Assembly: GCA_018668635.1 (NCBI GenBank)
Contig: JABJCN010000157.1
Location: 170-64,169 of the forward strand
Source: Opitutia bacterium
GTDB lineage: Bacteria; Verrucomicrobiota; Verrucomicrobiia; Opitutales; JABJCN01
Length of the DNA: 64,000 nt
Direction: 5' to 3'
A program made the translations under genes and the position numbers. Below, in pieces: positions 4,237 through 54,100 of this stretch (positions within the stretch are counted from its first letter, which is position 1; each line of letters opens with the position of its first letter). The notes under the pieces were generated by a model. That model did not search any database, was not told where the DNA came from, and was given only the letters and a program-made list of their open reading frames with translations.

Positions 4237-4318
4237 AATGGCAATTGGAATTTACAGTACAGAATAACTGCTCAAAGATTTGGACAATCCTGACATTTTT
4301 CTCAAGTTTGATTGCCGT

Positions 4319-5755: not shown

Positions 5756-5789
5756 TTCAGGTTTTGGTTTTCTACCATTGTTTAAAATG

Positions 5790-14100: not shown

Positions 14101-14245
14101 GCTTAGGCTTACCTGTTGGTTCCGCATTGTCGGGGTGTTCCACCTTGTCGGGTTGCTTCTTTTCCGCAGGACCGCATCCAATAAAAGGAAGTGAGATGCC
14201 AAGTGAAAGTCCTATGGCAAGTATGTGGGATTTGCCGTTTTGCAT
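11105..14245 (-). CDS. BspA-type leucine-rich-repeat (LRR_5) surface lipoprotein
   Basis: Lipobox LPFIGC. There are dozens of ~23-aa units such as IP..VTSIG..AF..C..L. An N-terminal low-complexity stretch repeats KPKQPDE/KVKQPDE. Confidence 0.8.
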   Translation of the reverse strand: MQNGKSHILAIGLSLGISLPFIGCGPAEKKQPDKVEHPDNAEPTGKPKQPDESGETGKVKQPDEIDLSQLKPNPFADFKWEVSGNLVSIIECKASGIVVLPDTIAGFPVGRIGSLVSDGNTLPDQLKDGNAIPDGVTTLVIPESVTSIGDGAFYGCKSLVRLKIPDKVTSIGKYAFYGCENLESVMIGSGLTGIGDGAFYGCRSLTNLELPDSLVYIQQRAFQYCTNLRGITIPPVVNSIANSAFDDCPSLTSITVSEKNRTFSSENGVLINKARQSLLRCPQGRDGAYQVPAKVTHISDSAFYRCSKLTSVNIPEGVTTIGNYAFRECSMMNTVTIPQTVSSIGIFAFASCEKLVGVRIPAGVLGIGSYTFYDCKSLESVDLNDKATSIGNGAFQDCSALTSLLLPSRLTSIGNSAFHGCTRLTGLTFPGKLAAIGKGAFRKCAGLTSLNIPDPVTAIADHAFAGCAGLTQVRLGNTVTSIGRYAFSGCTELKELAIPETLTTLGPGAFASCRNLERVTIPAGLNHAISTSENSSGGAILSPFFECSGLRSVTIKVPSVSTSYTDWIGSEKLKTTSITEIIFSEGVTAIGDSTFRDCTTLVSLTFPESLTHIGNSAFYGCTSLANLSFPEKLTSIGKEAFRECSGLTSLNIPDPVTTIQDHAFRGCNGLTGVTLGKAVTNIGSYAFSGCTRLKEFSIPETVITLGPGAFASCGNLTSVTIPAGLNHAISTAHTSSTGSTLSQFFGCSGLTSVRIMVPAVNTAYTEWIDNDLLGTNAVIEIIFAEGVTDIGDHSFQNKSSLQTVHLPVSAKRIGSRAFYGCNGLKNVNVPMGTTSIAANAFDDCLRLVAINVEGNNPTYSSQDGILFNKARTNLIRCPEGKSQSYSIPDGVTTIGNHAFHRCKGLEVVTIPDGVTGIGTNAFSECASLTSITIPDSITSIGNQAFRKCTKLTGITIPKGVITIGVSTFSECTGLKEVTIGESVTGIGTAAFSDCSNLKSVKVLGKGIPAAVDVFRNSPATIYFMPGAQGWGPVWNDRFVRPVRDKP
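11830..13030 (-). repeat. Tandem intragenic duplication, 2 x ~600 nt (about 200 aa, 8 LRR units each) in the LRR gene
   Basis: Protein blocks LTFPGKLAAIGKGAFRKCAGLTSLNIPDPVTAI... and LSFPEKLTSIGKEAFRECSGLTSLNIPDPVTTI... align end to end. Shadow ORFs 11961.. and 12561.. share MAWFRPAGIVTL at an offset of exactly 600 nt. Confidence 0.8.
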
Positions 14246-20801: not shown

Positions 20802-20876
20802 TTTCTAATTCCATCCACCGTTTTCATTCCTTTCCATTTTTTTGTCCAAAGCGTTCACTTTGGGGGTGAATTGGAT

Positions 20877-30040: not shown

Positions 30041-32368
30041 TCAAAATGACTCCAGTTGCGATTCCTTTTCAAATACTAGAGCAATCCTGAACCCCGAATC
30101 ATCTCCCTGATATCCACTGCGCGGCTTAAATCTGGCATCGATGCGACAGTGTAATGCCGGCGATCTCCATGAACCTCCGCGAAGTATATGGTTGAGACCG
30201 CCTGAGTTGTTAAACCAATTCTTTTGTTTTCCCCCAGGATAAGGTCCGAAAACATCACGAACCCACTCCTTTACGTTTCCCTGCATGTCATAGATGCCCA
30301 GGCTGTTCGCTTTAAGGAGGCCAACTCTTCTTGTGATGCCTCCGCTGTTTGCGGAATACCAGGTCGTGCGCTTCAATTCTTGTTTTGTGAAATCCTGACA
30401 GGCATTTTGCCACTGTGCCTCGGTCGGTAGATTATATTTCCATTGATCCGGCAGTCTGCCCGAAGCTTGCTCCAGGCGAGTTAGCTCAAGGCAGAAATCT
30501 GATGCCTGAGTCCATGAGATCTTTTCGACGGGATGGTCATCCATATCCTTGAAGCGACTCGGGTTAACTCCACGAATTGTCCTGAATTGCTTCTGTGTGA
30601 TTTCGGATTGCCCGATCCAGTAACCCCTGGTGAGGGATACCCGTGTCTGGGGGGATTCCTCAGGGTTTTCCTTCATTGGGGTGTCACTTCCCAGTTTGAC
30701 GACGCCTTCAGGAACCCAACGCATGGGGATACCGGCAGAATGAACAACAAATGGGATGGCTTCTACTGGAACATATGTCTTTATCCAGTTGGCCACATAT
30801 TCTTTATCCTCTGCCCGGAGCGTTTCGTCATCAAGATATGTTATGGATCCATCTGTGTCCCTCAGAACAAGTTGACCATCCTTGACCTGATTTAAATTGG
30901 CACGAAAAGTGACTCCATCCATATCAGTCCATGTCCGGAATCCGGGATCAGGATCATTCGGAGGAAGAGGAAGTTCGAAGAGTTCGCCTTCCAGAACGGA
31001 TATGGGTGCGGGTTCTTTCATGTACTGGGTTTCTGCTGCCAGTATCTCCTCATTCATTAACTTTCGAGACTCCTCAAACGCCTTCAGGAGTTCCTGCTGT
31101 CCAAGGAATATGGAATCTGCATTACCGGGATTCGGTTCAATCGGTGGGTTGGTCGGTAAAGATGGTGGCGAAGTATTCGGTGGTGGGTCCGGTGTCGTTG
31201 TGGGCGGTGGAATTTGATGTACTGGTGGTCTCTGGTCAGGCGCAGGTTCTCGGGCAATATCTCCTGCCTTGTTTGTTCTCGTTAGGATCACGATTATCAA
31301 AACCAGAATCACCGCACCAAGAGATGCCGCTACCCCAATTAAGTAGGGTGTCCCATTAGAGTTTCTTGATGGTTCTACAGGATTCTTGTTTTTTAATGGA
31401 GGAGTTTTGGCAGTGGTTGCTTCGGCCTTGGTCTTTGGGAGCGCATGCTTCATCTCCTCGGCACTCTGGAAGCGCTCATCTGCATTTTTTGCCAAAGCCT
31501 TTTCCAGCCATGTATCCCATTCGGGATTTATTCCCTTTTGGATTTCCGTGGGTTTCTTGAATCCTGGTGTTTCCTCGCCTGTCAGGATTTGGAAGCAGAT
31601 TAGACCCACTGCAAACAGATCACTGCGGGCATCCACCTCCTCGCCTTTTTTCTGTTCGGGAGCCATGTACTCGTAGGTGCCTACAATCGCCCGGTCAGCC
31701 GTTCTTGGTCCACTTCGGGCTTTGATTACCCTGGCTCCATCCTCAATTTCAACATCACTGGAGATCGAGGAACGAAGTTGATCCTGATGCCAACTGGCAC
31801 CCGCCATCTTGACGAGGCCAAAATCAGCGATCTTCATCCCGGTCGAATTGAGAAGGATATTGGTAGGTTTAAGGTCACGATGAACAATGCCTCGACTGTG
31901 TGCAAAGCCAATGGCAGATAGAAACTGCCGCATACATTCGATGACCTCATCTTCGGTAAGTTTCCCTCCCATGTACCATACATAGTCTTCAAGGGTGATC
32001 AGGTTACCACCGGTCGCCTCCACTCCATCCATTAATTCCATGCGTAACCAGAAACGACCATCCGTCTCGCCAAACTCATCAACAACCACAATGCCCGGAT
32101 GGTGTAATTGAGCCATGACTCGTCCCTCGGTCTTGAAATAAGAGAGGGCAATCTTGTTTTCCATGATGCTCTCATTGATCAATTTCAAGGCATGTCGAGT
32201 TCCCAGAACACGGTGCTCAACCTCGTAGACTTCGCCCATGCCTCCAACACCAAGAAGCTTCACTATTCGATATTGGCCGAAATCAGATTCAGCCTTAAGT
32301 GAACTCTCCATGCTCTCGGGCTTGAACCCGTGACTGGAGGGCGGGGGGCCTGATGGGTGCTTATCCAT
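30041..32368 (-). CDS. Transmembrane Ser/Thr protein kinase with extracytoplasmic SHD1 and FGE-sulfatase-fold (SUMF1/PvdO-like) domains
   Basis: Kinase motifs: GVGGMGEVY, ALK, HRDLKPTN, DFG, APE. TM helix: LIGVAASLGAVILVLIIVILT. A Pro-rich linker follows. SHD1-like region: FRTWTDMDGVTFRANL..GQLVL...LRAEDKEYV. FGE-fold region: GYWIGQSEIT..., YNLPTEAQW, GIYDMQGNVKEWV, RGGSW. Confidence 0.85.
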   Translation of the reverse strand: MDKHPSGPPPSSHGFKPESMESSLKAESDFGQYRIVKLLGVGGMGEVYEVEHRVLGTRHALKLINESIMENKIALSYFKTEGRVMAQLHHPGIVVVDEFGETDGRFWLRMELMDGVEATGGNLITLEDYVWYMGGKLTEDEVIECMRQFLSAIGFAHSRGIVHRDLKPTNILLNSTGMKIADFGLVKMAGASWHQDQLRSSISSDVEIEDGARVIKARSGPRTADRAIVGTYEYMAPEQKKGEEVDARSDLFAVGLICFQILTGEETPGFKKPTEIQKGINPEWDTWLEKALAKNADERFQSAEEMKHALPKTKAEATTAKTPPLKNKNPVEPSRNSNGTPYLIGVAASLGAVILVLIIVILTRTNKAGDIAREPAPDQRPPVHQIPPPTTTPDPPPNTSPPSLPTNPPIEPNPGNADSIFLGQQELLKAFEESRKLMNEEILAAETQYMKEPAPISVLEGELFELPLPPNDPDPGFRTWTDMDGVTFRANLNQVKDGQLVLRDTDGSITYLDDETLRAEDKEYVANWIKTYVPVEAIPFVVHSAGIPMRWVPEGVVKLGSDTPMKENPEESPQTRVSLTRGYWIGQSEITQKQFRTIRGVNPSRFKDMDDHPVEKISWTQASDFCLELTRLEQASGRLPDQWKYNLPTEAQWQNACQDFTKQELKRTTWYSANSGGITRRVGLLKANSLGIYDMQGNVKEWVRDVFGPYPGGKQKNWFNNSGGLNHILRGGSWRSPALHCRIDARFKPRSGYQGDDSGFRIALVFEKESQLESF

Positions 32369-32376
32369 CCCTTTGA

Positions 32377-33189
32377 TTAGCTTGGAATACCGACCTTTAA
32401 CAGGATCACGGTAACATTGTCTTTGCCTCCAGCCAGAAGCGTGTTTGAGACAAGTTTCTCTGCCGCACTAATCAATGGTTGCTTCGTCTGGAGGGCATCC
32501 AGGAGAACCTCTGTAATCTCATGATCCCAGAGTTCCTCATTCAGTCCATCAGAACAAAGGAGATAAAGGTCACCATCAGCCATCTCAAAGGAAGCAATTT
32601 CAGGGTCCAGACCCTCCGGGTGAGACCCAACTGCCTGATCAATTACATTACGGTGTGGATGAGTGCGGGACTCTTCAATCGTTATCCTGCCTTCCCTTAA
32701 GAGACGGCCAACAGGAGACTGGTCTTTGCTCAATTGCTCCAGTGTATTGTTTCGCAATCTATAAACGCGACTATCTCCCACATTGGCGAGCGTTAACTCA
32801 TTCCCCTTAAGCCAGCACAAAGTGAGGGTTGTCCCCATTCCAGCAAGGCTGGGGTCAGCATCGGTTTTCCGAAGGATACGGAAGTTGGCTTCATCAACAA
32901 TATTACGCAGAGGCTCTTCTTCCGGGTTTGGGCAGGTAGATCCTCCTGCCAACTCAAGGATGCTTTCGCGAAGAATACTGCTCGCTAATTCACCGCCTTG
33001 CACACCACCCATGCCATCCGCCACAACGGCAATGTATCCTCGGGATGAAATCTCACTGGACCCCTTGTCAGGCAATTCATCAGCACCATCCTCCCCGACG
33101 CTTAACATGACCATCGAGTCCTCGTTGTTTTTGCGAATATTACCAACGTGTGAAACGCAGGCCCAAGTGCAGGTAGACAGGTGGTTCAA
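32377..33189 (-). CDS. PP2C-family Ser/Thr protein phosphatase
   Basis: GNIRKNNEDS, VADGMGG, LCSDGL, GGKDNVTVILL. It lies 8 nt upstream of the kinase gene and overlaps the TIM-barrel gene stop by 4 nt. Confidence 0.85.
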   Translation of the reverse strand: MNHLSTCTWACVSHVGNIRKNNEDSMVMLSVGEDGADELPDKGSSEISSRGYIAVVADGMGGVQGGELASSILRESILELAGGSTCPNPEEEPLRNIVDEANFRILRKTDADPSLAGMGTTLTLCWLKGNELTLANVGDSRVYRLRNNTLEQLSKDQSPVGRLLREGRITIEESRTHPHRNVIDQAVGSHPEGLDPEIASFEMADGDLYLLCSDGLNEELWDHEITEVLLDALQTKQPLISAAEKLVSNTLLAGGKDNVTVILLKVGIPS

Positions 33190-36617: not shown

Positions 36618-37223
36618 GTGGCAAAGTCCCAAAAGAACACAAAACAATCCTCCAAGCGAAAAAATGCCAAGCCGGTGATTCACCCTCAGCACGGCGTCAT
36701 TCCTCCGGAACGCAACAAGGAACTTGTAGGGTTATTGATGAAGCATCAGCGACGAATTTTCTCATATATATATACTATGGTTCCCAATCGCGAGGACTCA
36801 GAGGATTTGCTTCAGGAAACTTGCCTAACAATTTGTGAGAAATTTACTGACTTTGTTGAAGGTACCAACTTCCTTGCATGGGCATGCCAAATCGCATTCT
36901 GGAAGGTTCGTGCAGCGCGCAAGAAATTTGCCACAGCCAAGGTTGTTTTCAATCAAGAGCTTATGGATACGGTCTCAGACACCATGTTCGAGATGGCAAA
37001 GGAACTCGATGTGCGGCACGAGTCCCTCAATGCCTGCCTACAAAAGCTTAATGAGCGGGATAGAACCATGATCATGACCCGATATGAACCTGGATGTAAT
37101 GCACAAACTGCATCTGATGTCTGTGGTCGTTCTATACAAGCAACATACAAGGCCTTGTCCAGGATTAGGAAATTGCTCTTCGACTGCGTTACATTTGAGC
37201 AGGCCGTTCGTGACAACATATGA
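36618..37223 (+). CDS. ECF-type RNA polymerase sigma-70 factor (Rhodopirellula/Verrucomicrobium family-like)
   Basis: Region 2: IFSYIYTMVPNREDSEDLLQETCLTICEKF...FLAWACQIAFWKV. Region 4: ERDRTMIMTRY...TASDVCGRSIQATYKALSRIRKLL. GTG start at 36618. Confidence 0.85.
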   Translation: MAKSQKNTKQSSKRKNAKPVIHPQHGVIPPERNKELVGLLMKHQRRIFSYIYTMVPNREDSEDLLQETCLTICEKFTDFVEGTNFLAWACQIAFWKVRAARKKFATAKVVFNQELMDTVSDTMFEMAKELDVRHESLNACLQKLNERDRTMIMTRYEPGCNAQTASDVCGRSIQATYKALSRIRKLLFDCVTFEQAVRDNI

Positions 37224-38956
37224 AACTTTCAGATAATGAAATCCTTGAGTTTGATGAATTGCTGAATTCAGTCTCAGAGGAAAGTGTAACCGAAGCTGAC
37301 AAGAAACGGCTTCAGGAATGGCTCCAGAACAGTAAGTCTGCCCGGCGGCGCTACATAAAGTTCATGGACATGAATGCCAGCCTGCATCATTATGCAGCGG
37401 AATTTCAGGGAGCCATACCCGAAGATGACCCTGAAGGATTTCGTTCCCCGACGCAAAGTGGCTCCAATATTCCTGATCACTTCCTCAAGACGGCACTCGC
37501 CGTAGCAGCAGCAATAGTCCTTGGCTTTGTCGCGCTAAACTTCCTGCCAAAAAAAGCGTCTCCTATTGATGATGAACAGGTAAACGCCGACAATCAACCT
37601 TTCGAGGGCAGCAAACCCGAAGCTTTTGCGCCCGTTGCAAACAGTGTTGCAGTGCTGACCCAGGCATGGGGTCTTGAATGGGACAACCCGGATGCCACCG
37701 TCAAAGTAGGGGATGAACTCTCTGTCAGCTCTCTGGAGTTCTCAGCAGGTCTGGCACAACTGGAATTCAAGGATGGGGCTATCGTTATTGTTGAAGGGCC
37801 TGCCAAGTTGCAACTGAAGGGGGCCAATGAAGTTTTCTGTTACTTCGGTAAAATCCGGGCCATGGTTCCGGAGCAGGCTTCCGGATTTCAGGTCGGTACA
37901 CCCAGTCTGGATGTTGTGGATCTGGGCACTGAGTTTGGCATGAGCGTTGGCGAGAACGGCGAAATTGAAGTTGTCGTTTATGAGGGGAAGGTCGAATTGC
38001 ATATTGATGAGGCCATGCCTGGCGCTGAGCCTGAAATTGAGGTTTCAGAGCTCAATGCGGGGGAAAGTGTTTTTCTGGACCCCAAGGGGTTGCTCAAGAA
38101 GATGGATATGCCCAAGAGTCAGTTCATCGGAACTGCAGGACTCGCGGAACGCTCCATCGAGGAACTTCAGGCCCGCTACTCACGATGGGTCGAGGCCAGT
38201 CAGGAATTGAGGGAGGATGAGCGTTTGTTGCTTTATTACACATTTGACAACGAGCAGGCATGGTCCCGTACCGTTACCGATCAGGCGCTCAACAAATCCC
38301 GCAGCTCCAATGGGGCACTCATCGGATGCATGTGGGTGCAGGGACGCTGGCCCGGGAAGGGCGCCCTGCAGTTCAAACGCAGTAGTGACCGTGTGAGGAT
38401 TGATATTCCGGGGGAACAGGACTCAATTACTTTTACCGCCTGGGTCCGACTCGACCGCCTGAATACGACCACCTCATCCCTGTTTCTTTGCAGTAATGAA
38501 AACCCCGGGAGTCCCCATTGGCAGATTGACAACGAAGGTCGACTCATGCTTGCAGTAAGGAAGCCTGCACGCCGCAAACCAATCAACCCCCGCACCAGGA
38601 TAACCAAGACAGAACCCTGGGTTTATCAAACCGACAAGGTACTCAATAACCGACTGGGAGAATGGGCGCATCTTGTTACCGTATATGATCGCCAGAAGGG
38701 GAGTGTAAGCCACTACATTGATGGGCGAAAGGTTGCTGACCAAAAGATTCAGAATCGGGACCGCTTGAGCATTGAAAAGGCTGAGCTTGGCAACTGGCCC
38801 CGCCCGGACAAGGGTCATCCCGCAACTAATTTCAGGGGAAGCATGGATGAACTGGCCATTTTTAAGTCAGCTCTCTCCAAGGACGAAATCCTAGGCCTTT
38901 ACGAGGTTGGTCGCCCCAATGCTCTCCACGGCTGGGCCTCCCTTCGCAAGGACTAG
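37220..38956 (+). CDS. Anti-sigma factor: N-terminal anti-sigma domain, TM helix, FecR domain, C-terminal LamG (Laminin_G_3) domain
   Basis: The ATG overlaps the sigma gene stop (ATGA). TM helix: ALAVAAAIVLGFVALNFL. FecR-like region: LEFKDGAIVIVEGPAKLQL...DLGTEFGM...VVVYEGKVEL. LamG tail: WAHLVTVYD...GSMDELAIFKSALSKDEILGLYEVG. Confidence 0.75.
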   Translation: MKLSDNEILEFDELLNSVSEESVTEADKKRLQEWLQNSKSARRRYIKFMDMNASLHHYAAEFQGAIPEDDPEGFRSPTQSGSNIPDHFLKTALAVAAAIVLGFVALNFLPKKASPIDDEQVNADNQPFEGSKPEAFAPVANSVAVLTQAWGLEWDNPDATVKVGDELSVSSLEFSAGLAQLEFKDGAIVIVEGPAKLQLKGANEVFCYFGKIRAMVPEQASGFQVGTPSLDVVDLGTEFGMSVGENGEIEVVVYEGKVELHIDEAMPGAEPEIEVSELNAGESVFLDPKGLLKKMDMPKSQFIGTAGLAERSIEELQARYSRWVEASQELREDERLLLYYTFDNEQAWSRTVTDQALNKSRSSNGALIGCMWVQGRWPGKGALQFKRSSDRVRIDIPGEQDSITFTAWVRLDRLNTTTSSLFLCSNENPGSPHWQIDNEGRLMLAVRKPARRKPINPRTRITKTEPWVYQTDKVLNNRLGEWAHLVTVYDRQKGSVSHYIDGRKVADQKIQNRDRLSIEKAELGNWPRPDKGHPATNFRGSMDELAIFKSALSKDEILGLYEVGRPNALHGWASLRKD

Positions 38957-39162: not shown

Positions 39163-42100
39163 TTGGACGCGTTCTCTGGGTCATTCAGCCTTTTTTGCGT
39201 TAAAATGATTGAAAGCAGATGGCTCAACGTCTTGAATTACCGACATCATCTTTTGAGCATTCTCGCAATGCCTGCCTTTAAAAACAAAATCACAACTTCT
39301 TTCCAAAAGTTGTTGCCAATTGCATTGGCTATGATGCTAGGCACTACGCCTGCTTATTCGGATCTGACTGCTTACTACCAATTAGTCCTTGAGGAAGTAT
39401 CCTGGGCCGATGCGGTTGAAACCTCTCAGGAACGCGGAGGCAACCTTGCCACTGTTACAAGTCAGGCTGAATGGGATCAAATCAATGAGCAATTGGGAAC
39501 TAGCATCGATGGCCTAGACCTCTGGCTTGGTGGAAGAGCAGATCCTGAAGATACTGAGCAGGACCCCGGTAAGCGCAGGTGGATCTGGGTCACGGGTGAA
39601 GAATGGGATTATTCACGCTGGCGGAGACTGGAACCGGATGGCAACTTCGGTGTTCAGGACCGTCTTTTCATTAACGGTAGTCACCCAAGTGAAGGTGCTG
39701 ACCACAAGTGGAACGATCACCCAAACAAAGCGGTCGACCTGGCTTTTTCAAAATATGAGATCAAGGGCTACATCATAGAATTAGGTTGGGCATCCATTGA
39801 TGGCAATCTCAGATATGTGGGCTCCAAGTCCGGAAACTTATACATTTCAGTTACCGGTGGTCCTGCTGATCACCCTGGTGGCAGTCGCATGATGCGTCAA
39901 CCCGGGGACTTCAGTTTTACAAACCTGGTGAAGGGGTTCGAGTATACAATCATTGCCTACCTCGACACAAATTCGAATCAAAACCAGGACGAAGGTGAAC
40001 CCGAGGGACGATACGTTTACACACCGCACCTGCTAACCGAAGACCTAAAGGACATCACAGTCACGGTATATGACGAGAACAGTCCGCCCAATCCGTTGGT
40101 GCTCAATGGTCAGTCCATTCACGACAATGACGAGGTCGGCAAGGAAATCGGCATAGTCATTCCATCAGATCCCGACGAGGGACAGGAATTGATGGTATAT
40201 GTTATTGATCCCACCCACAAGTTTCGTGTCGACGGCAACAAGCTACTTATCACGACAACCTTCAATTCAGAAGAAATCCAATCACAACCGCTTGTCCTTC
40301 GCACCGTGGACGACGGTGGACTCTTTACCGACACACAATTTAACCTTTCCGTCCTTCCTCCCAACCGAAGCCCGACGATCAACACCCGTGAATCTGTCAC
40401 TATAGATGAGGACTCCTTCTTCCGCATGGCAACATCCGGAGAGAACATCCTCCAATTTGATGATGATGCGACAGGGAATGAGCAGGTGGAAGTTACATTC
40501 ACGGTTACAGAGGGAGGCATCTATTTCTTCAAAAACAACAATATCACCTTTACGGATGGCGAACCAGGCACTGGATACGTGAAATTCAGAGGCACTCTGG
40601 ATAATGTGAATGCCAGGATGGATCGTCTCACATACAACCCTCCTGAAGACTTCAACGGTCAGGTTACATGGACCATCGAAATCAGTGATCTCGGCAACCA
40701 CGAGGGAAGTGTTCCACTTACTGCGTCACACACAATCGATATCACCATTAATGCCGTCAATGACGCCCCGGAAGTCACCGTCCCCGAGGCCATTCAGAAC
40801 CTGCTGGAGGACAGCACCCTCACGTTTAATATAATCAAAGGGAACCCCATTACGGTCAACGACGACCCGGAGAATGACCAACCCATCACCTTTGAGATGA
40901 GTGTGGATCATGGCACCCTGACCCTTGGCAAGATCCGCAACCTTACATTCCTCACAGGGGCTGACGAATCTTCTCATATGGAGATAAGTGCCACCACCAC
41001 CGCGCTCAACTCCGCGCTGAACGGCCTGACCTACACCGCCCCCAGGGATTTCGACGGCACTGCCACCATTTCATTCCTCACCGCTGATAACGGCAATATT
41101 GGAAAGGGCGGGCCCAAGACTGCACAAAACTCTCTCGATGTCTCAATCCTGGCAGTCAATGATGCTCCCATCATCACCGGTCCCTCGCTGGTTACACCCG
41201 TTGAGGATATTCCTTTCAGCTTTGACGGTGAGGCAGATGCCCTGATCACGATCATCGACGACGCTGCCAACGAGGGTGACGACAACCAGGTTGGCAACGT
41301 CACCACCCAGCTCACCATCAATGTCGACCACGGCACTGTCCGCATGGGGCGTCTCAACGGCCTTACATTTCTTGAGGGCGACTCTGCAGGGGATAGCAAA
41401 CTGGTCATGACCGGCCCCTACAATCTCATGGTTCTGTCCCTTGATGGCATGACCTATACATCGGACAAGGATTACAATGGTGGTGATAGCCTCAAGGTCG
41501 AGTTCAACGACTTGGGGCACTTTGGCGAAGGGGGTGCCAAGACTGCCGCACATACTGTCCTCTTGGTCGTTGGACCCGCCAACGACCCGCCGACCGATGT
41601 CCTTATCGACTCCTCCTCTGTCGCGGAAAACAAGAAGGCCGGTACCTCTGTTGGCAAACTCAGCGCCGTGGACCCCGATGCAAATGACACACATACTTTC
41701 AAACTGGTGGTGCCTGCAGACGCCGGAGCACCACCATTCACCATCTCCGGCAACACCCTCAAGACCACCCGCGAACTGGATGCCGAGGATGAACCCCTCA
41801 TCTTGGTCCACATCGCCGCCACCGACAAGGCCGGTGCCACCTTTACCAAGACCCTCTGGATTCACGTCACAAATCTCAACGATGCACCCACCGGCATCAA
41901 TATCGACAACTCCGTCATCCCTGAGGAGGAACCCGCCGGCACGTTTGTCGGGACCCTTACCACTATTGACTCCGACGGCACCCTCGGTCGGGGACTCATC
42001 GGCTACTGGCCCTTTGATGACGGGCAAGGCATCTCCGTAGCGGACTACTCGGGGAACGGCAACGGTGGCACCATCAACAACGAGACACCCACCATGTGGA

Positions 42101-45100
42101 AACCCGGTAAAATCGGTACCGCCCTGGAACTCAATGGTTCCACCCGTCTTGTCGAGATCCCCCACATCCACAAGTATCTCATTGATTCCGGCACATTTTC
42201 CATCTGGTACAAGCACACCAATGACCAGGGGGCTCTTTTCTCCAAGGATTCATCCGGCTTCGATAACGGCGGGCATTTCTACCTGACCATGAATGCAAAG
42301 AAGCTCGCCGTTCGACTGCAGGGTATCAATACCCACAACAATCTCTCCATGAATGCCGCCTCATCGGTCCTGAACACCCGTAGCCAGTGGCACCACGCAG
42401 CATTCACCTTTGGCACATCCGGAATGACCCTTTATCTCGACGGTGAGATCATGTCCACCAATACCCATTACACCGGCGGCCTCGGTCAGTCCTCCGGCGG
42501 CAGCGGCAACGCTGAACCCATCGCAATCGGTGCCAATACTCTACAGAGCGGGGACAACACCCTCTTCCCGGCAAAGGAATACTTCAAGGGCAGTGTTGAT
42601 GAGTTCCGCATCTACGACCGCGCACTCAGCGACATCGAGGTCCTCGAGCTCATGGAGACCACCACCACCACCAATGACTTCCATGTCTACACGCTCGTTC
42701 CCGGGGTGGGGGCCGGGGACAACTCCTCATTCTCAATCGATGACAACCAACTTTTTACCAAGGTTCCACTCGACCATGAGGGTCGCGATGGTTACCACAT
42801 TCGCATTCGCACACAGGATTCCGCCGGTGAAACCTTTGAGCAATCCCTTCACATCACCACCACCAATGTCAACGACCCGCCGTCTGACATCATACTGACC
42901 CCCGATGCCTTTACCGAGAACCAGGTTGTCGGGGCCACGGTTGGACTTCTGAGTGCAATGGATGATGGCGGGATCGAGGAAGGCGTCGGTTCCTACCAGA
43001 TCGTAAACACAGCCATGGATTGGGAACAGGCAAACGCCAACGCGGAAGCCTTGGGCGGTCACCTTGCCATCATCACCAGTGAAGCGGAATGGCAAAAGGT
43101 TATGGAACTCCCCGGTCTAAAGCAGGGCCTATTTATTGGTGCCACCGATGAGGAGGAGGAGGGGACCTGGAGATGGGTCAACGGACAACCACTCGCCGGC
43201 GAGAACCGCCAACCCGATACATTTCATGCCTGGCTTGGCAGCGAACCCAATAACACTGGCGATGCCGAGCACTATGCCGTTATTTGGGAATGGGATCAGG
43301 CTTATGCCTGGAATGACACCGGCAATTCTTCAACCGGGCACATAGTCGAGTTCCCCGGCATCAGCTATCAACTGGTTGAGGGTGAGGGCGATACCGACAA
43401 CTCCCTCTTCACCATTGAGGGCAACGAGCTCAAGGCGGCCTCCGGGTTTAATTTCGAGACCAGGTCCGCACACAGCATCCGGGTCAAGGCCACGGATTCC
43501 GGGGGGCTCTCCCTCGAGAAAGCCATTTCAGTAACCATCACCGATGCCAACGATACACCGGTTGGCATCACCATTGACAACAACACCATCGATGAAGGGC
43601 TGGCCAAGGGGGCAACAGTCGGCAACCTCTCCGCCATCGACGAGGATGCCGGGGATACCCACACCTTCAGCCTGGTGGTGCCTGCAGATGGCGGAGCTCC
43701 ACCTTTCACCATTTCCGGCAAAACGCTCAAGACCACTGCCGTCCTCGATTTCGAGAGCCAGCCCACGCACGAGCTCATGGTCATGGTGACCGATGAGGCC
43801 CAGGCTTCGTTTTCCCAGGTCATCACCATCAATGTCAATGACACCAATGATCCGCCCACCGGAATCACCCTCGCACCGGCGGAGGTCGCCGAGGGGTTGC
43901 CAAGGGACACTGTTATCGGTACATTGACCGCAATCGACACCGATCCCGGGGACACCCACACCTTCCGCATCACCGGTGGCGCCGACAAGTCCCTCTTCAA
44001 CATCTCCGGCAACCAGCTTTTCACAAGGGAGGTGCTCGATTACGAGACCAAGGCCCAGCTCGAGGTCACCATCGAGGCCAGGGATGAAAGCAACCTCACC
44101 TTCGAGCAGACCCTGACCGTCAATGTGATCAACGCAAATGACCCGCCCACCGATATCACCCTGGAACCAACCACCTTTGCTGAGAACCTGGCCATCGGGA
44201 CCGATGTAAGCAAGTTGGCGCTGGTGGATCCGGATGGAAATGACGCGGGTAATGAGAATCCCACGACTTCTGCAAAATACGTCTTGGTCAATAAAACACT
44301 GACATGGAAAGAGGCCAAGGCTGAGGCCGAGAGCATGGGCGGTCATCTTGCCACTTTCAACTCCGAGCAGGAATGGGATGCCATGGTTGCAGAAGTTGGT
44401 CTCACGAACATTTCCAATGACAACATTTGGCTTGGTGCCACCGACGAGGTGGAGGAGGGCGTATGGAAATGGGTGACAGGGGAACCTGTTACCTACAATC
44501 GGTGGGACGAGGGCCAACCGGACGGGAAAACCAACCAGCACTATATGTTGATCTGGGCAGCTACGGGTGCCAGGTGGGATGATATGGAGTTGAATGGCTA
44601 TGGTAATGTGGCCCTCAGATACTTTCTTTTGGAACTGCCATCGACACCATCTTTCACCCTCACCTCCGGTTCCGGCGACACCGACAACTCCCTCTTCACC
44701 ATAGAAGGGGACCAGCTCAAGACGGCGGCGGACTTCAATTACGAGGCCCGGGACGAATACACCATCCGGGTCAAGGGCACCGATTCCGGTGGCCTGAGCA
44801 TTGAGAAAACCTTCACCCTCGACCTCACCAATGCCCCGGATGCGCCCACGGACATCCTGCTCAGCGAAAGTACCGTCGACGAGAACCTCAAGAAGGGGAC
44901 CCTGGTCGGGAACCTGGTCGCCACCGATGAGGATGCCGGCGAGAAGCACACCTTCAAGATGTTCAATGCCACCCTGGTTGCCAACCCGGACAACGCCCTG
45001 TTCACCATCTCCGGCAACCAGCTAAAGACCAACGACATCTTCGACTTCGAGACCAAGTCCAGCTACACCATCAACGTAGAGGTCACCGACGATGATGACC

Positions 45101-48100
45101 TCGTCTTCATGAAGGAGCTGACCATCGGCGTCAACGACATCAACGACGCACCGACCGGACTCACCCTTGCCCCCGCCGAGGTCGCCGAGGACCTACCCCG
45201 GGACACCGTCGTCGGCACACTCACCGCCGATGACCCCGATGCCGAGGCCACCCACACCTTCCGCCTCATCGGCGGTGACGACAAAGCCCTCTTCAACATC
45301 TCCGGCAACCAGTTGACCACCAAGGCCGTCCTCGACTACGAGGCCAAGCCCCGGCTCGAGGTCATCATTGAGGCCAAGGACAACGGAAACCTCACCTTTG
45401 AACAGACCCTGGTCATCAACGTCATCAACGTGAATGACCCGCCCACAGATATCATCCTGGACAATGACACCTTTGCCGAGAACCAGGTTGTCGGGACCAC
45501 GGTTGGACTTCTAAGTGCAATGGATGATGGCGGGATCGAGGAAGGCGTCGGTTCCTACCAGATCGTAAATACACCCATGAATTGGGAACAGGCAAACGCC
45601 AACGCGGAAGCCCTGGGCGGTCACCTTGCCATCATCACCAGCGAAGCCGAATGGGAGAAGATCAAGGAACTGCCCGGTCTGAAGCAGGGCCTTTTTATTG
45701 GAGCCACCGATGAGGAGGAGGAGGGGACCTGGAAATGGGTGGATGGACAACCACTCGCCGGCATGAACCGCCAACCCGATACATTTCATGCGTGGCGTAG
45801 CACCGACCCCAATAACTCGGACGATATCGAGCACTATGCTGTTATTTGGTACGATGACAGGGATCAGGTTTATTCCTGGGTCGATTTCCCCAATTCAACC
45901 GGGCACATAGTCGAGTTCCCCGGCATCACTTATCAACTGGTTGCCGGCAACGGCGACACCGACAACGCCCTTTTTATAATACAAGGGGACCAGCTCAACA
46001 CGGCCGCGGCCTTCAACTACGAGGCCCGGGATGAATACACCATCCGGGTCAAGGGCACGGATTCCGGTGGCCTGAGTATCGAGAAGGTATTCACGCTCGA
46101 CCTCACCGATGCACCGGATGTTCCCACGGAGATCCTGCTCAGCAACAACACCGTTGACGAGAACGAGAAGAAGGGGGCCATCGTGGGCAACCTCGGCGCC
46201 ACCGATGAGGATGCGGACGAGAAACACACCTTCAGGTTGCTGGACATCCCGGTTGATCCCGATCCCAACCAACCCGCCCCGGCACCGTCCGACAATTCAT
46301 TCTTTGCCATTTCCGGTACCACGTTGAAGACCAATGCCGTCCTCGATTTTGAGGCCAAGTCCGCCTACACCATCACCATCGAGGTCACAGACAAGGACAA
46401 GAGAACCTACCAGCAGGAGATCGTGGTGGGCGTCAACGACGCCAATGATGCCCCGACCGGGTTGACCATCGACCGGGACGCGGTCGCCGAGGGCCTGCCA
46501 AAGGGGACCGAGGTGGGCACCCTTCTGGCACAGGATCCTGATGCCGGGGACTCCCACACCTTCCGCATCACCGGGGGCAAGGACTACAAGCTCTTTTCCA
46601 TTGTCGACAACAAGCTCCTCACCAAGGAGGTGTTCGACCGGGAGGTGAAGGCTGCCTTCGAAGTAGAGGTCACTGCGACCGACAGCGGCAGGCTGATTGC
46701 CGAGACCCTGTTCAACATCACCGTGATCGACGTCAACGACGCCCCGACCGATGTCACCCTCGACAACGACACCATCGCCGAGAACCAGCCCGCCGACTCC
46801 ATCGTCGGCAACTTCACCCTCGTTGACCAGGACGGCGGTGGCGATCCCACCACCGGCGGATTGAGTGAAACGGGTGGCGTCAACCCCGGTACCGGTGGCA
46901 GTACATCCTTCACCCTTGCCGAGGGAGCAGGGGACACCGACAACGCCTCCTTCACCATCGACGGGGAGCGGTTGAAGATTGTTGCGCCATTGAATTTTGA
47001 GGCCAAGCCCCAGCACACCATACGCGTTAAGGCAACGGATGCCGGCGGGCTCAGCGTGGAGCGCAATTTCCTGGTCAAGGTCACCAACGTGCCGGAGGCC
47101 CCGGTTGCCATTGCCATCAGCAATGACAGCATCGCCGAGAACCTCAAGAAGGGGGCCACCATCGGCAAGCTGAGTGCCACCGATGAGGATGCCGGCGAGA
47201 AGCACACCTTCAAGTTGATCGATTCACCCGCCGGGGTGGGCAACGACAACGCCCTCTTCTCCATCTCCGGGTACAACCTGCGAACCAACGCGGTGCTGGA
47301 CTTCGATGCCACCCCGCAGCTTTCCGTCCTTGTCGAGGTCACCGACCGGGCCAAACTGACCTACACACAGGTGCTGACCATCAACGTCACGGACGCCAAC
47401 GACGCACCGACCGGGCTCACCATCGACCCAGTCACCATCGCCGAGAACCAGGCCAAGGGAACGGAGATCGGCACCCTGACCGCCATCGACCCTGACACGG
47501 GGGACACCCACACCTACTCCGTGGTCGGTGGCAAGGACAAGAAACTCTTTGCCGTCAACGGCGACAAGCTTATCACCAACGCCATCCTCGACTACGAGCT
47601 TAAGTCGGAACTGGACCTCGTCATCCGCGTGACCGACTCCGGCAAGGCCTCGGTTGACATCCCGCTTCCCATCACCGTCACCGACGTCAATGATGGCCCC
47701 ACCGACATCACCCTCGACAACGATACAATCGCGGAGAACCAACCCGCCGACACCGTGGTGGGCAAGCTCGCACTCGAGGACCCGGACGGGGCAGGTGGAG
47801 GTTCCGCCCCCGTCATCATCACCGAGGGGGTGGGGGAGAAGCTATGGGAATTTGAAACAGGGGATTATGTTTACTCCTCGCCCGCGATCGGAATCGATGG
47901 TTTAGTCTACTTCGGATCTTTTGACCGAAAGATCTATGCACTTGTTGGCCAGACAGGTATCAAAAAATGGGAATACGAAACGGGGGGGCAGGTTGAGTCC
48001 TCCATTGCGATCGGCTCGGATGGGACGGTCTATGTCGGGTCTAACGGCGGCTCTGTATATGCTCTAGACGGCCAGACAGGTTCGAAAAAGTGGGAGTTTG

Positions 48101-51100
48101 TAACGGGAGGTCTGGTACGCTCTTCTCCTGCCATTGGGCCTGATGGTACCGTCTACATCGGTTCATTTGACAACAAGGTGTACGCTTTGAACGGTAAAAC
48201 TGGTTCTAAGAAATGGGAGTTTGTCACGGGAGGTTCTGTGAAGTCATCACCTGTGATCGGATCAGATGGGATGGTCTACATCGGGTCTTATGACAAAAGG
48301 ATATATGCTCTGGATGGCGAGACTGGAGAGAAACAATGGGAGTTCATTACGGGAGGGCGGGTGCAGCGGTCGCCGTCCATCGGATCAGATGGAACCGTCT
48401 ACGTAGGTTCATTTGACAACATAATATACGCGCTTAACGGGAAAACCGGTGTCAAGAAGTGGGCTTTTGAGGCTGGGGACATGCTGGAATCCTCTCCCGC
48501 GATCGGCTCGGATGGAATCGTCTATGTAGGGTCTGCTGACAAAAATGTCTATGCTCTGGATGGTCATACTGGGGTTAAGCTATGGGAATTCATGAGCGGA
48601 GGAAAGGTAATCTCCTCTCCCGCGGTCGGCTCGGATGGTACCGTCTATGTCGGGTCTGTTGATAAAAAGGTCTACGCCCTTGATGGCAAGACTGGCGCTA
48701 AACAGTGGGAATTTGTAACTGGAAACAGCATTAAATTGTCTTCCCCCACTATCGGTTCGGATGGCACCGTCTATATCGGGTCGCATGATAATAAGGTCTA
48801 TGCCATCCAAGGATCCTCCGGTCCTGCAAATTCCACCTGGCCAATGTTCGGTCAGAACCCGCAGCATACTAGTCGGATCGACGATAGTAGCTCAGGTTTC
48901 TCCTCCTTCACCCTCACAGCCGGTTCAGGCGACACCGACAATTCCTCATTCACCATCGACGGGGACGACCTGAAGCTGGCCGCACCGCTGAACTACGAGG
49001 CCAAGAGTAAGTACAGCATCCGGGTCAAGGGCACGGACAGCGGGGGACTCTCCATCGAGAAGGAATTCCTGATCGATGCCACCAATGTCCCCGAGGCGCC
49101 AACCGCCGTTGTTCTGGACAACGACACCGTGGAGGAGAACCTCAAGAAGGGGTCCACCGTGGGACGCCTGTCAACCACTGACGAGGACAGCGGCGAGAAG
49201 CACACCTACAAACTGGTCGATGCACCGGAAGGGGAGACCAACCAGAACGCCCGCTTCACCATTTCAGGAACCACACTGCGTACCAACGACGTATTTGACT
49301 TTGATGTCGTGCAGGAGCAGACGGTCCATGTCGAGGTGACCGACCGGGGCAAGCTGACCTTTGTGCAGGCCTTGACCATCCGGATCATCGACGCCAATGA
49401 CCCGCCGACCGGCCTGACCATCGCATCGGACAGCGTGGACGAGAATCAACCCAAGGGCACCGTGATCGGGGCCCTGACCGCGGTGGACCCCGATGCCGTG
49501 GATTCGCACACCTACTCCATTGTCGGTGGCCGGGACAAGAAGCTCTTCGCCGTGGCGGATGGCAACCTGGTATCCACGATGCCCTATGATTTCGAGACCC
49601 AACCCACGCTGGAGGTTGTGGTCCGTGTCTATGACAAGCGGAAGGCCCAGGGGGAATTCCCGCTGAGCATCACGGTGAACGATGTCAATGATGTGCCGAC
49701 CGACATCACCCTCAGCAACGACACCATCGCGGAGAATGAACCCACCGACACCATCATCGGGAAGCTGGTCCTTCTCGATTCAGATGGGGCAGGTGGCCCA
49801 ACGGTCGATCCCGTCAGTGGAAATACCCAGTTTGATTTCACCAACGGCCTCGTGGCCTACTATCCATTCAACGGAGATGCCAAGGATGAAACCGGCAACG
49901 GGCATGATGGCGTCGTCCACGGGGCAAGCCTGGGCCCTGACAGGCAGGGGACAGATACAAGTTCCTATTACTTTGATGGGGTGGATGACTACATCGATGT
50001 TGGGAGCCATCAACTGGACGGTGCTTTTACGATTGCCTCGTGGGTTTATCACGACGGGGTGAACACCCTACCATGGTTTGAGGCTGTTTATGCTACGGCC
50101 AATGTAGATATCGGTCTCTTCGCCCACCTACTTGAAGGGTCCATGTTCTCCAGACTCCATGTGGGAGGCAATAACGATGCCTATATCGACACAGATAAAA
50201 TGACAGTTCCCACCGGCAACTGGTATCACCTTGTTGGTTCATGGGACGGCCAGAACGCCAGTTTATACATCGATGGTACCGCAAAGGCTACGGCATTGAC
50301 CGGGTCAATGAATGCTCCGGTCCCCTCAAATTCATACTTGGGAAAGAATGGTTGGCGGGAAAACGAGGAGGAACTGGGTGAACACCTTAAAGGCCGTCTG
50401 GACGATGTGCGCGTCTACGGCCGTGCACTTTCAGTCGAGGAAGTTACCGCCCTCTACAATCTCGAAAGTGGGACATCTACTGGCACCACCTCCTTCGCCC
50501 TCACTGCCGGCGATGGCGATACCGACAACTCCTTCTTTACCATCGACGGGGACGACCTGAAGCTCGTTCCCTCAGCAGACTTTGAAACCAAAAACGAGTA
50601 CAGTGTGCGGATCAAGGGGACCGACTCTGGCGGTCTCTCCATCGAGAATATCTTCCAGGTCGGCGTGACCGATGTGAACGAGGCCCCCTTCAATGCAACC
50701 CTGGATATCACCCTTGTAGAGGAGAATGCACCGGCCGGGTTCCGCCTTGGCAAACTGGTGGCCCTGGACCCCGACCGCGGGGACAAGGTGGTGGTGACCC
50801 TTGCTGAGGATACCGACGAGATTGACAACGAGCATTTTCAGTTCAAGGGAACAAGCCTGGTTACGAAGACAGCCTTTGACTATGATACACAGCCGACCCG
50901 CACCCTTCGTGTGATTGCGACCGATTCCGGTGGTCTGAACACGGTGACGGACATCCTGATCAACATTGGCAACAAGAGTGAACCACCCACGGGCATTACC
51001 CTGGACGGCACCTCGGGCGAGGTGGTTTCCGTGGAGGAGAATGCCGCTACGGATACATTGGTCGGCAGCTTTACCACGGAAGACCCGGATGGAGCCGAGG

Positions 51101-54100
51101 CCTTTGTCTACAGCCTTGTCAGTGGGGATGGAGATATAGGGAACAAGAACTTCACCATCGATGCGGAGGGCAACATAAAGGTCAAGGCTTCCGCCAACCT
51201 GGACTTTGAAACATCCCCCGCCACTTCTGTACGGGTCCGCACGACGGATACAGGAGGGAACTCCCTGGAGATATCCTTTGCAATTGCCATAACCAATGTA
51301 AATGAACTTCCCCTGGGGGTCACGCTCGACAACGAATCCGTAATGGAGGGCCTGCCGAATGATACACTCGTCGGCACACTATCCGCGACCGACACGGACA
51401 GCGGGGATTCCCACACCTTCACCCTGGTGGACGGGGCTGGAGGCACCCACAATGACCTGTTCAAGATTGTTGGTGATGAGCTCCAGGTTGCACAGTTGAT
51501 TTCCGGCAAGACAACCCCGGTGGCCAGCATACTGGTCCGGGTGACGGATGCCGGTGGCCTTACATTCAATCAGGCATTATCCATAACCATAACCGATGCC
51601 CCGGATGCGCCAACCGGTATCAACCTGGATGGCAACTCAATCAAGAAGTATGAGCGCACCGGTACATTGATCGGCACACTGACCGCTGTCGATGGTGATG
51701 AGGATGACAGCCACACCTTTGCACTGGTCAGTGGTGCAGCCGGGACCAACAACGAGCTTTTCTTTATCGATGGGGATCAACTGGTCTCCAACCACATGTT
51801 CGATGACACTGCTGCAGCCTCCTACAAGATCAATGTGGAGGTGACGGACAGCGCGGACCTCACTTTTGTAAAGACCTTCACCATCACCATCATTAACGCT
51901 GCCAACCCCGGTGGACACCTGGTCGATGTGACCAAGATTCCCGTGGATGGCGGACTGGTGGCCGGTGCCGGGTACTACACCGATGGTGAAGCCGTGAGCC
52001 TTGTCGTGAAAAACAGCCCGGGCTACACCTTCTCCGGTCACAGCGGTGACGTGGCGGGAGGTTTCTCCGCTGAAAACCCGCTGGAGTTTGATGCGGATGG
52101 GAACAAGGACATCATCACCAGCTTCACTCAGGGGTATCACAAGGTTGTGGTTGGCGTGACTCCGGAGCGTCATGGTTATGCCTGGGGCGGAGGCAGTATC
52201 CAGCATGGTACCGAGATCACTGTCCAGGCCAAGGAACTTGACCCGAAATACGGCTGTGTCTTCACCCACTGGAGTATCAACGGGGTTGACCAACCCGTGG
52301 ATGAATCGAGCCCGCTTGTCCTGAAGGTGACCGTGGATCGCACCCTTCGTGTTCTTGCCCACTTTGACTACGGCCTGCCGGATTCCATGAAACTGGTTCC
52401 CTCTGGCAACTTTTCACAGGGCGATGCCCGCTACCATGGGGAGAAACCGGTCATCACCCCGCTGGTCAGTGCATTCTATATGGATGAGCATGAGACCTCC
52501 AAGAAGGATTTCTATGATGTCTTCAACTGGTCAATCCAGCAGGAGACCCCGTACAGCTTCATGTTTGATCCTACCGTTGTCAACGGGCGCAACCGGGCCC
52601 ACATCGATGGTGGATACAAGGATGATTTCCCCATCACGGCCATTACCTGGCTGGATGCCATTGCATTTGCCAATGCCCTTTCTGAAATGGAGGAGTTGAC
52701 CCCCGTATACTACGAGGATGCTGCAAGGACCACGGTCTTCCGTGGCCGCAAGCGTGACAAGAATGCGGATGCCGGGAATGAGGAGAGCCACCTCGGGCAA
52801 AAAATTTATGAATCCAATGTGGACTGGCGGGCCAAGGGGTATCGCCTTCCCACAGAATCGGAATGGGAGAAGGCGGCTCGCGGCGGTGTTGCAGGACTCA
52901 CCTATGCCAACAGCAACACGCTGGACTCCAAGTTTACCCATTATGACCAGGATACCATAATCCGCAGTCTGCGATCGGTGGGCAGCCTGGAACCCAATGG
53001 CTTTGGCCTTTATGACATGAACGGCAATGCATGGGAGATGTGCTGGGACTGGCACTGGAAGAACTGGTATTTTGAAGCGGATGCATCCGCCAAGGACCCC
53101 AAGGGTCCAGATATGTCTGACAAGACCATCTTCGATAAGGTCAATGCGGAAAACTGGCTGGTCCGTACGGTTCGGGGGGGTAGTGGCAATACCGACAAGT
53201 CCCGGATGCGTATTTCCTACCGCAAGGATTTCAACAAGACATGGTACCAATACGCCATAACCGTACGCCCGCTGGTTCCAGCACCAAGTGATCCGCGTGC
53301 CGAGGTGATCGTGGCGCTTGTCCCTGCACACCTTGGGTCTGTGACAGGTGGCGGTGTCTATGAAATTGGGGCGACTGCAACCCTCATTGCCACACCCGCC
53401 TCAGCCAATGCAAATTTCCTTCGGTGGGAGGATGCTGCCGGGAATAACCTGGGTACCGGCACCACACTTTTACTTAGCCTGAATTCAACCGGTGCAGATG
53501 ACGACCTGGACAAGGAGATCACCGCAATCTTTGAGGATACATCCAATCCCGATGACCAGCTCTATAGCCTCGAGGTTGTTGCTGATCCATTTGGCTCAGG
53601 TACAGTCCTTGGTGGAGGTGCCTACAAGCTCGGCGCAGAAGTCACCCTGACCGCCGTCCCTTCCAATGGTAATGATTTCGCCGGATGGTCCGGGGATGCC
53701 TCCGGCACTGAAACGGAGACCAAGATAACGATGGACGGACACAAGAAGGTCCTGGCGTACTTTGGGGATACATCCGAGGATTCCGATGAGGATGGTCTTT
53801 CTGACCTTTATGAAAAGAGCCTGGGTACCAATCCGGAAGACAAGGACACGGATGATGACGGTTTGACCGATGGCGAGGAGATGAACACCCATTCCTCCAA
53901 TCCGCTTCTGGTTGATTCTGATGGGGATGGTCATGATGACAAGACCGAGGCCTTCCATGGCACTACCCTGAATGATTCATCTGACTTTCCATTCCTCGAG
54001 CAGGACAGGATTGGACTCTGGTATGTATTCAAGGGTAAGGCATACGACATGTCTCCAGCCCGTAATCACGGAAAACTCAAGAGCGTCAGTTTTACCAAGG

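Follow-up and report, generated by a model that had tools for sequence, protein, structure and literature searches.

The closest known parallels to the system reported here include the Ca2+-dependent carbohydrate-recognition domains (CRDs) of animal C-type lectins and, by analogy, a giant adhesin of a marine bacterium. In Mincle, the residues forming Ca-site II are E168, N170, E176, N192, and D193 (PMC7618208), and galactose-type lectins require a Trp residue in the loop after the QPD triplet for stacking on galactose (PMC8092209). Reviews have treated bacterial C-type lectin-like domains (CTLDs) chiefly as members of the compact intimin/invasin type (PMC6468738), and the 1.5-MDa adhesin of Marinomonas primoryensis carries a Ca2+-dependent lectin, MpPA14 (PMC8092209). 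Here, we describe a giant multidomain gene located in a 64,000-nucleotide stretch of contig JABJCN010000157.1 from Opitutia bacterium (assembly GCA_018668635.1; the whole stretch is hereafter called the window), the predicted product of which contains four CTLDs (CTLD1–CTLD4). A preliminary description of this DNA reported that these domains carry the triplets EPD, EPN, QPD, and DPN, respectively, each paired with a WND-like motif, and proposed that one protein presents several Ca2+-dependent lectin heads with divergent glycan specificities. The four domains are, with high confidence, genuine long-form CTLDs with their triplets at Ca-site II; they belong to a disulfide-free prokaryotic lineage, and CTLD2 is canonical. 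The proposal of divergent specificities is only partly supported, as the ligand sets of CTLD1, CTLD3, and CTLD4 are non-canonical and CTLD3 lacks the aromatic residue of galactose-type lectins.

Four separate stretches of the protein were matched by the Pfam family PF00059 (Lectin_C; 110.9 bits vs. a gathering cut-off of 22.6), and a profile built from the four domains matched 179 CTLD sequences in PDB. PDB entry 9b4h_X was also weakly matched by these CTLDs. The AlphaFold (AF2) model of CTLD2 showed a predicted local distance difference test score (pLDDT) of 93.3 and a predicted template modelling (TM) score (pTM) of 0.88, and the pLDDT of the model of CTLD1, the most divergent of the four domains, was 90.8. 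In Foldseek searches against PDB, the top matches of the CTLD2 model were Mincle, CL-K1, Dectin-2, DC-SIGNR, and MBP-A (TM score, 0.78–0.83), and those of the CTLD1 model were mannose-receptor CRD4, CL-11, and herring antifreeze protein II. Across the two models, the best matches were sugar-bound CRDs, with TM scores of 0.75–0.83 and root-mean-square deviations (rmsd) of ~2.2–2.8 Å. The structure models cover CTLD1 and CTLD2, and CTLD3 and CTLD4 are linked to CTLD2 by sequence identities of 39 and 82%, respectively. In the MAFFT alignment, the positions of the inner cysteine pair are occupied by Tyr and Asn/Pro in the four domains, and a His-Tyr pair, which is conserved after the loop Glu/Gln, occupies the position of the Asp-Cys of animal CTLDs.

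The preliminary description had located the four triplets to the nucleotide, and each was found in frame within a single giant open reading frame (ORF) at exactly that place (Table 1). The WND-like motifs KWNDH, AWNDTG, RWDDME, and SWVDF are likewise present downstream of the respective triplets; only the range given for the CTLD2 motif (43308–43316) had to be corrected, because it fits neither AWNDTG (43306–43323) nor a codon boundary, WND proper being located at 43309–43317. HMMER, MAFFT, and AlphaFold/Foldseek concur in placing the triplets at Ca-site II, as had been proposed. In the HMMER alignment of CTLD2 with bovine Mincle, EPN falls on EPN, the Glu eight residues further on falls on the Mincle Glu, and WND falls on WND, and the register was identical in the alignment with CLEC4D (EPD/WND). 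When the four CTLDs were aligned with bovine Mincle and human CLEC4D by MAFFT, the triplets fell together at the EPN/EPD position and the WxD motifs at the WND position. For CTLD1, HMMER matched the EPD triplet to the QPD of the herring antifreeze protein, which is Ca2+-dependent. Because 115 of the 157 cysteine-poor homologous domains described below carry EPN, QPD, QPN, or EPD in the triplet column, the placement of the motifs reflects homology rather than chance.

Five site-II positions are considered here: residues 1 and 3 of the triplet, the Glu in the loop, and the Asn and Asp in WND. The preliminary description had reasoned that domains missing the other Ca2+ ligands could be non-lectin folds; in the alignment columns, these ligands were present in full in CTLD2 (E,N,E,N,D; EPN with a Glu eight positions further along, followed by WND), and the other three domains deviate. 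In CTLD1 (E,D,Q,N,D), the loop Glu is replaced by Gln, and in CTLD3 (Q,D,Q,D,D), the loop Glu is also replaced by Gln and WND is changed to WDD. Both of these domains have oxygen donors at all five positions, i.e. three carboxylates and two amides, in a non-canonical order. In CTLD4 (D,N,E,V,D), the Asn ligand is replaced by Val. In animal lectins, the Asn of WND contacts both Ca2+ and a sugar hydroxyl. To our knowledge, there is no established specificity rule for EPD and DPN. CTLD2 most likely functions as a Ca2+-dependent lectin of the mannose/fucose/glucose/N-acetylglucosamine type. In CTLD1 and CTLD3, the binding of Ca2+ and of a ligand is probably retained, with a specificity that cannot be read from the rule that assigns ligands by EPN or QPD, and the substitutions in CTLD4 point to a retuned or else weakened head.

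A word-indexed search with CTLD2 alone gave two matches; profile searches and exhaustive searches of representative proteins were used to collect homologues, and the exhaustive search yielded 42,068 representative proteins at E ≤ 0.001. The alignment columns of the homologues were taken from a MAFFT extraction, whereas hmmalign with the four-sequence profile misplaced WND in about half of them. The cysteine-poor set consists of 157 homologous domains with 0–1 cysteine residues (proteins P0084–P0233), which likewise lack the two canonical disulfides; a motif table compiled with regular expressions is crude and was used qualitatively. The triplet column of this set contains EPN (74 domains), QPD (18), QPN (15), EPS (11), and EPD (8), and the most common five-residue signature is ENEND, which was found in 45 of the 157. 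The loop Glu/Gln and the Asn/Asp of WND are tightly coupled (E+N, 69; Q+D, 23; Q+N, 2; and E+D, 0), although the Fisher value of 6e-20 is overstated, as the counts include tandem domains of the same proteins, which are not independent. In cysteine-rich, animal-like domains, the coupling is much weaker (E+N, 173; Q+D, 14; Q+N, 11; and E+D, 10). The coupling may reflect compensation through a swap of charges at Ca-site II; alternatively, it may be the mark of a single subfamily. CTLD3 falls in the recurrent Q...WDD class, and its nearest relatives are QPN...Q...WDD domains from Verrucomicrobia with 45–50% identity. WVD-type variants such as that of CTLD4 recur as well: E+V was found in six cysteine-poor domains, and P0121 contains several WVD/WID domains according to the cruder regular expression.

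The presence of several different heads in one protein turned out to be common among prokaryotic multi-CTLD proteins. Mixed triplets were found in the homologous giants P0109 (EPN, QPD, PPN, and EPN) and P0189 (EPN, NPD, and NPN) and also in multi-CTLD proteins with 0–1 cysteine residues labelled Verrucomicrobia (P0112), Winogradskyella (P0148), and Nitrosopumilus (P0094/P0267). Such proteins are frequent in Verrucomicrobia and Bacteroidota and also occur in an archaeal Nitrosopumilus metagenome-assembled genome (MAG). Triplet mixing is therefore not new, and the charge-swapped Ca-site classes are a more novel feature than the differing triplets. The protein from the thaumarchaeal MAG (Nitrosopumilus sp.) contains seven cysteine-free CTLDs of the QPD/QPN type; canonical-looking C-type lectin domains would thus also be present in Archaea, unless this assignment is a binning artefact. 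More speculatively, and on balance improbably, the homologues could represent a large uncharacterised prokaryotic lineage of disulfide-free CTLDs with discrete Ca-site-II chemistries, namely the canonical E..E..ND, the coupled Q...DD (CTLD3), the rarer EPD...Q...ND (CTLD1), and ...VD (CTLD4), in which case the giant protein would present four distinct Ca2+ sites on one stalk, perhaps for sulfated or anionic algal glycans beyond the EPN/QPD rule.

Conservation of the sites was examined in a second genome that is related to, but different from, the present one (locus L016; an error-prone long-read assembly). Orthologues of CTLD1, CTLD2, and CTLD3 were found at this locus, and their signatures, EPD...Q...WND, EPN...E...WND, and QPD...QHY...WDD, respectively, are all kept. 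The CTLD1 signature is also kept in P0003, and that of CTLD2 in P0001. The ligand loops of CTLD2 and its L016 orthologue share 58% identity, and the signature is kept nonetheless. Because the signatures of CTLD1 and CTLD3 are kept in L016 and the Q...WDD class is recurrent, the comparison provides evidence that these two domains are under functional constraint, with a putative site chemistry that has no characterised counterpart. Three independent assemblies have identical sequences over all four CTLDs. The MAG GCA_018673815.1 (L007) is nearly identical to the window except for two clusters of substitutions, nine in 61 nt (~42138–42198) and four in 29 nt (43365–43393), which resemble short tracts of recombination or gene conversion between internal repeats. 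A scan of the genome-contig collection for orthologues gave only a distant match in Prolixibacteraceae.

As stated in the preliminary description, CTLD2 and CTLD4 are near-duplicates: the two are 82% identical overall, sharing 75 of 83 residues (90%) up to the ligand loops and 19 of 33 (58%) inside them. The two copies of the block that contains these domains constitute the DNA repeat family D7 and are 86% identical. In Nei-Gojobori comparisons of the two domains, the 83 N-terminal CTLD codons showed a dS of 0.295, a dN of 0.047, and a dN/dS ratio (ω) of 0.16, whereas the ligand loops showed values of 0.24, 0.27, and 1.12, respectively; the dN of the loops is thus about sixfold that of the rest of the CTLD. 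The codon differences comprise 14 non-synonymous and 2 synonymous changes in the loops and 14 and 18, respectively, in the block before the loops (Fisher p = 0.005). Among the loop changes in CTLD4 are the replacement of Glu by Asp and of Asn by Val and the insertion of two residues, and polarization with the L016 orthologue of CTLD2 identified the CTLD4 state as the derived one. The change at the ligand triplet of CTLD4 does stand out against its near-duplicate, as had been claimed, and its meaning is ambiguous at a loop ω of ~1.1. A gene-conversion boundary as the source of the drop in identity was ruled out because dS is alike on both sides (0.295 and 0.24) and only dN rises. The divergence of the CTLD4 loops fits either relaxed or diversifying selection, which an ω near 1 does not separate. 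By these sequence comparisons, CTLD4 is a recent lineage-specific copy of the CTLD2 block, in which the excess of amino-acid change is limited to the ligand loops.

The explanation that we consider moderately probable is that the gene encodes a giant surface adhesin of a marine Opitutae (Verrucomicrobiota) bacterium, in which a cadherin-like stalk displays four true CTLDs that probably provide more than one type of Ca2+-dependent glycan recognition. The stalk would be formed by long series of cadherin-like domains and would present, besides the four CTLDs, three LamG domains, a beta-propeller, an FGE-sulfatase-type domain, and six immunoglobulin-like (Ig) domains; the CTLDs would provide the Ca2+-dependent recognition; and the protein, which is encoded in a sulfatase-rich genome neighbourhood, may function in multivalent adhesion to algal or particle glycans. 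Several points weigh against this explanation. All four domains are free of cysteine residues, and the two canonical disulfides are thus absent. The canonical ligand set was found in CTLD2 alone, CTLD4 has lost one ligand, and the loop ω of ~1.1 obtained for CTLD4 is the value that neutral decay would give. In the CTLD3 loop (QPDGKTNQHY), there is no aromatic residue from QPD to the conserved His-Tyr, and because the stacking aromatic is missing, the equation of QPD with galactose is insecure for this domain. The statistic for the E/Q–N/D coupling is inflated by tandem domains, as noted above. Finally, neither binding data nor any other experimental study of a prokaryotic PF00059 domain was found in the literature searched, although this does not prove the absence of such work.

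A rival explanation is that the protein has one working lectin head, or three at most, with CTLD4 and perhaps CTLD1 and CTLD3 serving as non-lectin spacers or protein-binding modules and with the triplet differences resulting from decay. The Val in CTLD4 replaces the Asn needed for Ca2+ coordination and for a sugar hydrogen bond in a loop with an ω of ~1.1, the related locus L016 showed no orthologue of CTLD4, the loop Glu is missing from CTLD1 and CTLD3, and non-lectin CTLDs are numerous in animals (PMC6468738). However, the CTLD1 and CTLD3 signatures are kept residue for residue in another species although the orthologue loops are only ~58% identical, and the Q...WDD combination is tightly coupled (23 Q+D vs. 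0 E+D). Both Q...WDD and the WVD variants recur among homologues and therefore indicate constraint rather than decay, and we regard this rival explanation as unlikely, though far from negligible.

Similarly doubtful, but deserving serious attention, is the possibility that all four domains bind but that the EPN/QPD rule fails in the disulfide-free lineage, with the surrounding loops setting the specificity or with sulfated/anionic polysaccharides, mineral surfaces, or ice as the ligands. The rule can be modified by an extended site, as exemplified by langerin, an EPN lectin that binds 6-sulfo-galactose (PMC7618208). One of the best matches of CTLD1 is the herring antifreeze protein, which is a CTLD of the QPD type; the neighbourhood of the gene is rich in sulfatases, and the charge-swapped sites have no characterised counterpart. 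For CTLD2, however, canonical behaviour is the simplest expectation because ENEND is the commonest signature among the cysteine-poor homologues and the model of this domain can be superposed on sugar-bound CRDs of the EPN type. Hypervariation of the CTLD loops by a diversity-generating retroelement (DGR), as in C-lectin-fold variable proteins of the Mtd/TvpA type, is highly improbable and was rejected: the CTLD2/CTLD4 differences are concentrated in the ligand loops and the protein also has an FGE-sulfatase-type domain, but neither a reverse transcriptase (among the scanned window ORFs of at least 150 aa) nor a template-like repeat was found, so that the FGE-sulfatase domain is not a DGR target here either, and the CTLDs show no strain variability, being identical in the three assemblies.

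If the heads of the proposed adhesin bind different glycans in a Ca2+-dependent manner, the protein would be a compact natural case of a bacterium using an 'animal' C-type lectin mechanism for multivalent marine attachment. The charge-swapped sites (Q...WDD and EPD...Q) would then widen the known chemistry of Ca-site II, and disulfide-free CTLDs, if they truly bind, would be convenient and easily expressed scaffolds for lectin engineering.

The mechanical ORF of the giant gene (39163–56655, forward strand) opens with TTG 39163, and the start is ambiguous within window positions 39163–39331, where TTG 39163, ATG 39268, and ATG 39331 are the candidates. In NCBI records (L007, L009, and L010), the gene starts at window position 39268, which keeps the signal peptide, whereas in ENA records (L006 and L008), it starts at ATG 39331, which would drop the signal peptide; ATG 39268 is the likely start. 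The predicted signal peptide, as read from the translation, has a basic n-region, a hydrophobic core, and an A-Y-S end and terminates just ahead of CTLD1, and the giant protein would accordingly be a candidate for Sec-dependent export to the cell surface. Pfam identified, after CTLD1, many cadherin-like domains, three Laminin_G_3 (LamG) domains, CTLD2–CTLD4, a PQQ-type beta-propeller, InlB B-repeats, an FGE-sulfatase domain, TSP3 repeats, and six Ig domains. CTLD2–CTLD4 are spaced by three to four cadherin domains each, and the four-CTLD region constitutes the N-terminal 40% of the protein. The blades of the PQQ-type beta-propeller correspond to six tandem 123-nt (41-aa) units at 47933–48715 in the window, which share 64–73% identity and form the repeat family D3. 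The FGE-sulfatase (SUMF1-type) domain is located between InlB B-repeat domains. A scan of pieces of the giant protein against NCBIfam gave no match above the cut-off.

Table 1. Coordinates of the giant gene, its CTLDs and associated motifs, and the adjacent regulatory genes (window positions)
Feature	Position	Strand	Description
Giant multidomain surface-protein gene	39268–56655	+	~5,795 aa from ATG 39268; ORF listing and translation
Predicted Sec signal peptide	39268–39360	+	MPAFKNKITTSFQKLLPIALAMMLGTTPAYS; read from translation
CTLD1	39367–39789	+	aa69–209; site E,D,Q,N,D
EPD of CTLD1	39631–39639	+	GAACCGGAT; aa157
KWNDH of CTLD1	39706–39720	+	contains WND
CTLD2	42985–43359	+	aa1275–1399; site E,N,E,N,D
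EPN of CTLD2	43243–43251	+	GAACCCAAT; aa1361
Loop Glu of CTLD2	43267–43269	+	
AWNDTG of CTLD2	43306–43323	+	WND at 43309–43317
CTLD3	44269–44640	+	aa1703–1826; site Q,D,Q,D,D
QPD of CTLD3	44515–44523	+	CAACCGGAC; aa1785; followed by Q-H-Y
RWDDME of CTLD3	44572–44589	+	contains WDD
CTLD4	45547–45930	+	aa2129–2256; site D,N,E,V,D
DPN of CTLD4	45805–45813	+	GACCCCAAT; aa2215
SWVDF of CTLD4	45874–45888	+	contains WVD
Duplicated block, copy 1	42865–43359	+	end of cadherin domain, linker, and CTLD2; protein/codon alignments
Duplicated block, copy 2	45427–45930	+	partner holding CTLD4; protein/codon alignments
FGE-sulfatase (SUMF1-like) domain	52384–53244	+	Pfam PF03781, 121 bits
Extracytoplasmic function (ECF) sigma-70 factor	36618–37223	+	Pfam Sigma70_r2, r4_2; directly upstream
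FecR-like anti-sigma protein	37220–38956	+	Pfam FecR and C-terminal Laminin_G_3

The ECF sigma factor gene and the FecR-like gene share 4 nt, and ~310 nt separate the end of the latter from the giant gene. The order of the sigma factor, FecR-like, and giant genes is kept in L016, and the synteny of the FecR-like and giant genes was also found in L006–L010. This arrangement suggests that the sigma factor and the FecR-like protein are a surface-signalling pair that may control the putative adhesin. The window contains five sulfatase genes and further glycan-related genes. In the regions at 2839–10034 and 19347–22601, the five sulfatases are found together with 3-keto-disaccharide-hydrolase-domain proteins, a ThuA/DUF7133/cytochrome c protein, and DUF1501/PSCyt/PSD1 pairs. 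Such gene content is typical of marine bacteria of the Planctomycetes–Verrucomicrobia–Chlamydiae (PVC) group that degrade sulfated polysaccharides. A gene on the reverse strand at 30041–33189 encodes a Ser/Thr protein kinase fused to a C-terminal FGE-sulfatase (C-lectin-fold) domain and adjoins a PP2C phosphatase gene; the two products may be a ligand-sensing kinase/phosphatase pair. Also on the reverse strand, at 11105–14245, is a gene for a 1,046-aa BspA-type leucine-rich-repeat protein (PF13306, 722 bits), which is probably another surface/adhesion protein.

Among known systems, the animal CRDs of Mincle (CLEC4E), CL-K1/CL-11, Dectin-2, DC-SIGN(R), MBP-A, and mannose-receptor CRD4 share the PF00059 family and the long-form fold with the domains described here (TM score of ~0.8 and rmsd of ~2.2 Å for CTLD2), and the site-II motifs of Mincle and CTLD2 are in identical register. 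These CRDs have two disulfides and an Asp-Cys pair, whereas the present domains have no cysteine and carry His-Tyr, reside in a cadherin-rich giant protein of a prokaryotic host, and have non-canonical ligand sets in three of the four cases. In ASGPR and MGL, which are of the galactose-specific QPD type, the triplet is the same as in CTLD3, which differs in having no loop aromatic. The mannose receptor/DEC-205/PLA2R family and the invertebrate CfLec-3 likewise contain several CTLDs per polypeptide with differing site-II motifs, only some of which are sugar competent. These multi-CRD proteins are, however, disulfide-bonded metazoan immune or endocytic receptors, in contrast to a predicted bacterial surface protein in which three to four cadherin-like domains are placed between the CTLDs.

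Of the giant bacterial adhesins, those of the repeats-in-toxin/type I secretion system (RTX/T1SS) class, such as the MpIBP and LapA types, differ from the protein described here, which has a Sec-like N-terminus and, in the Pfam and NCBIfam scans of its C-terminal part, Ig and TSP3 domains instead of RTX repeats. The adhesin of M. primoryensis appears similar in its proposed principle, i.e. a long repetitive stalk with Ca2+-dependent sugar-binding modules that would attach a marine bacterium to the glycans of another organism. This likeness is one of analogy, not of membership, because the lectin of that adhesin has a PA14 fold whereas a CTLD is used here, with a Sec-like N-terminus and no RTX/T1SS features seen. 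P0109, P0189, P0112, P0148, and P0094/P0267 carry CTLDs of the same cysteine-poor lineage and likewise combine EPN, QPD, QPN, and xPN heads, with Q...WDD and WVD variants among them. These prokaryotic multi-CTLD homologues differ from the giant protein in the number and order of their domains, and P0109 and P0189 share ~40% identity with it over ~2,000 aa of the C-terminal half.

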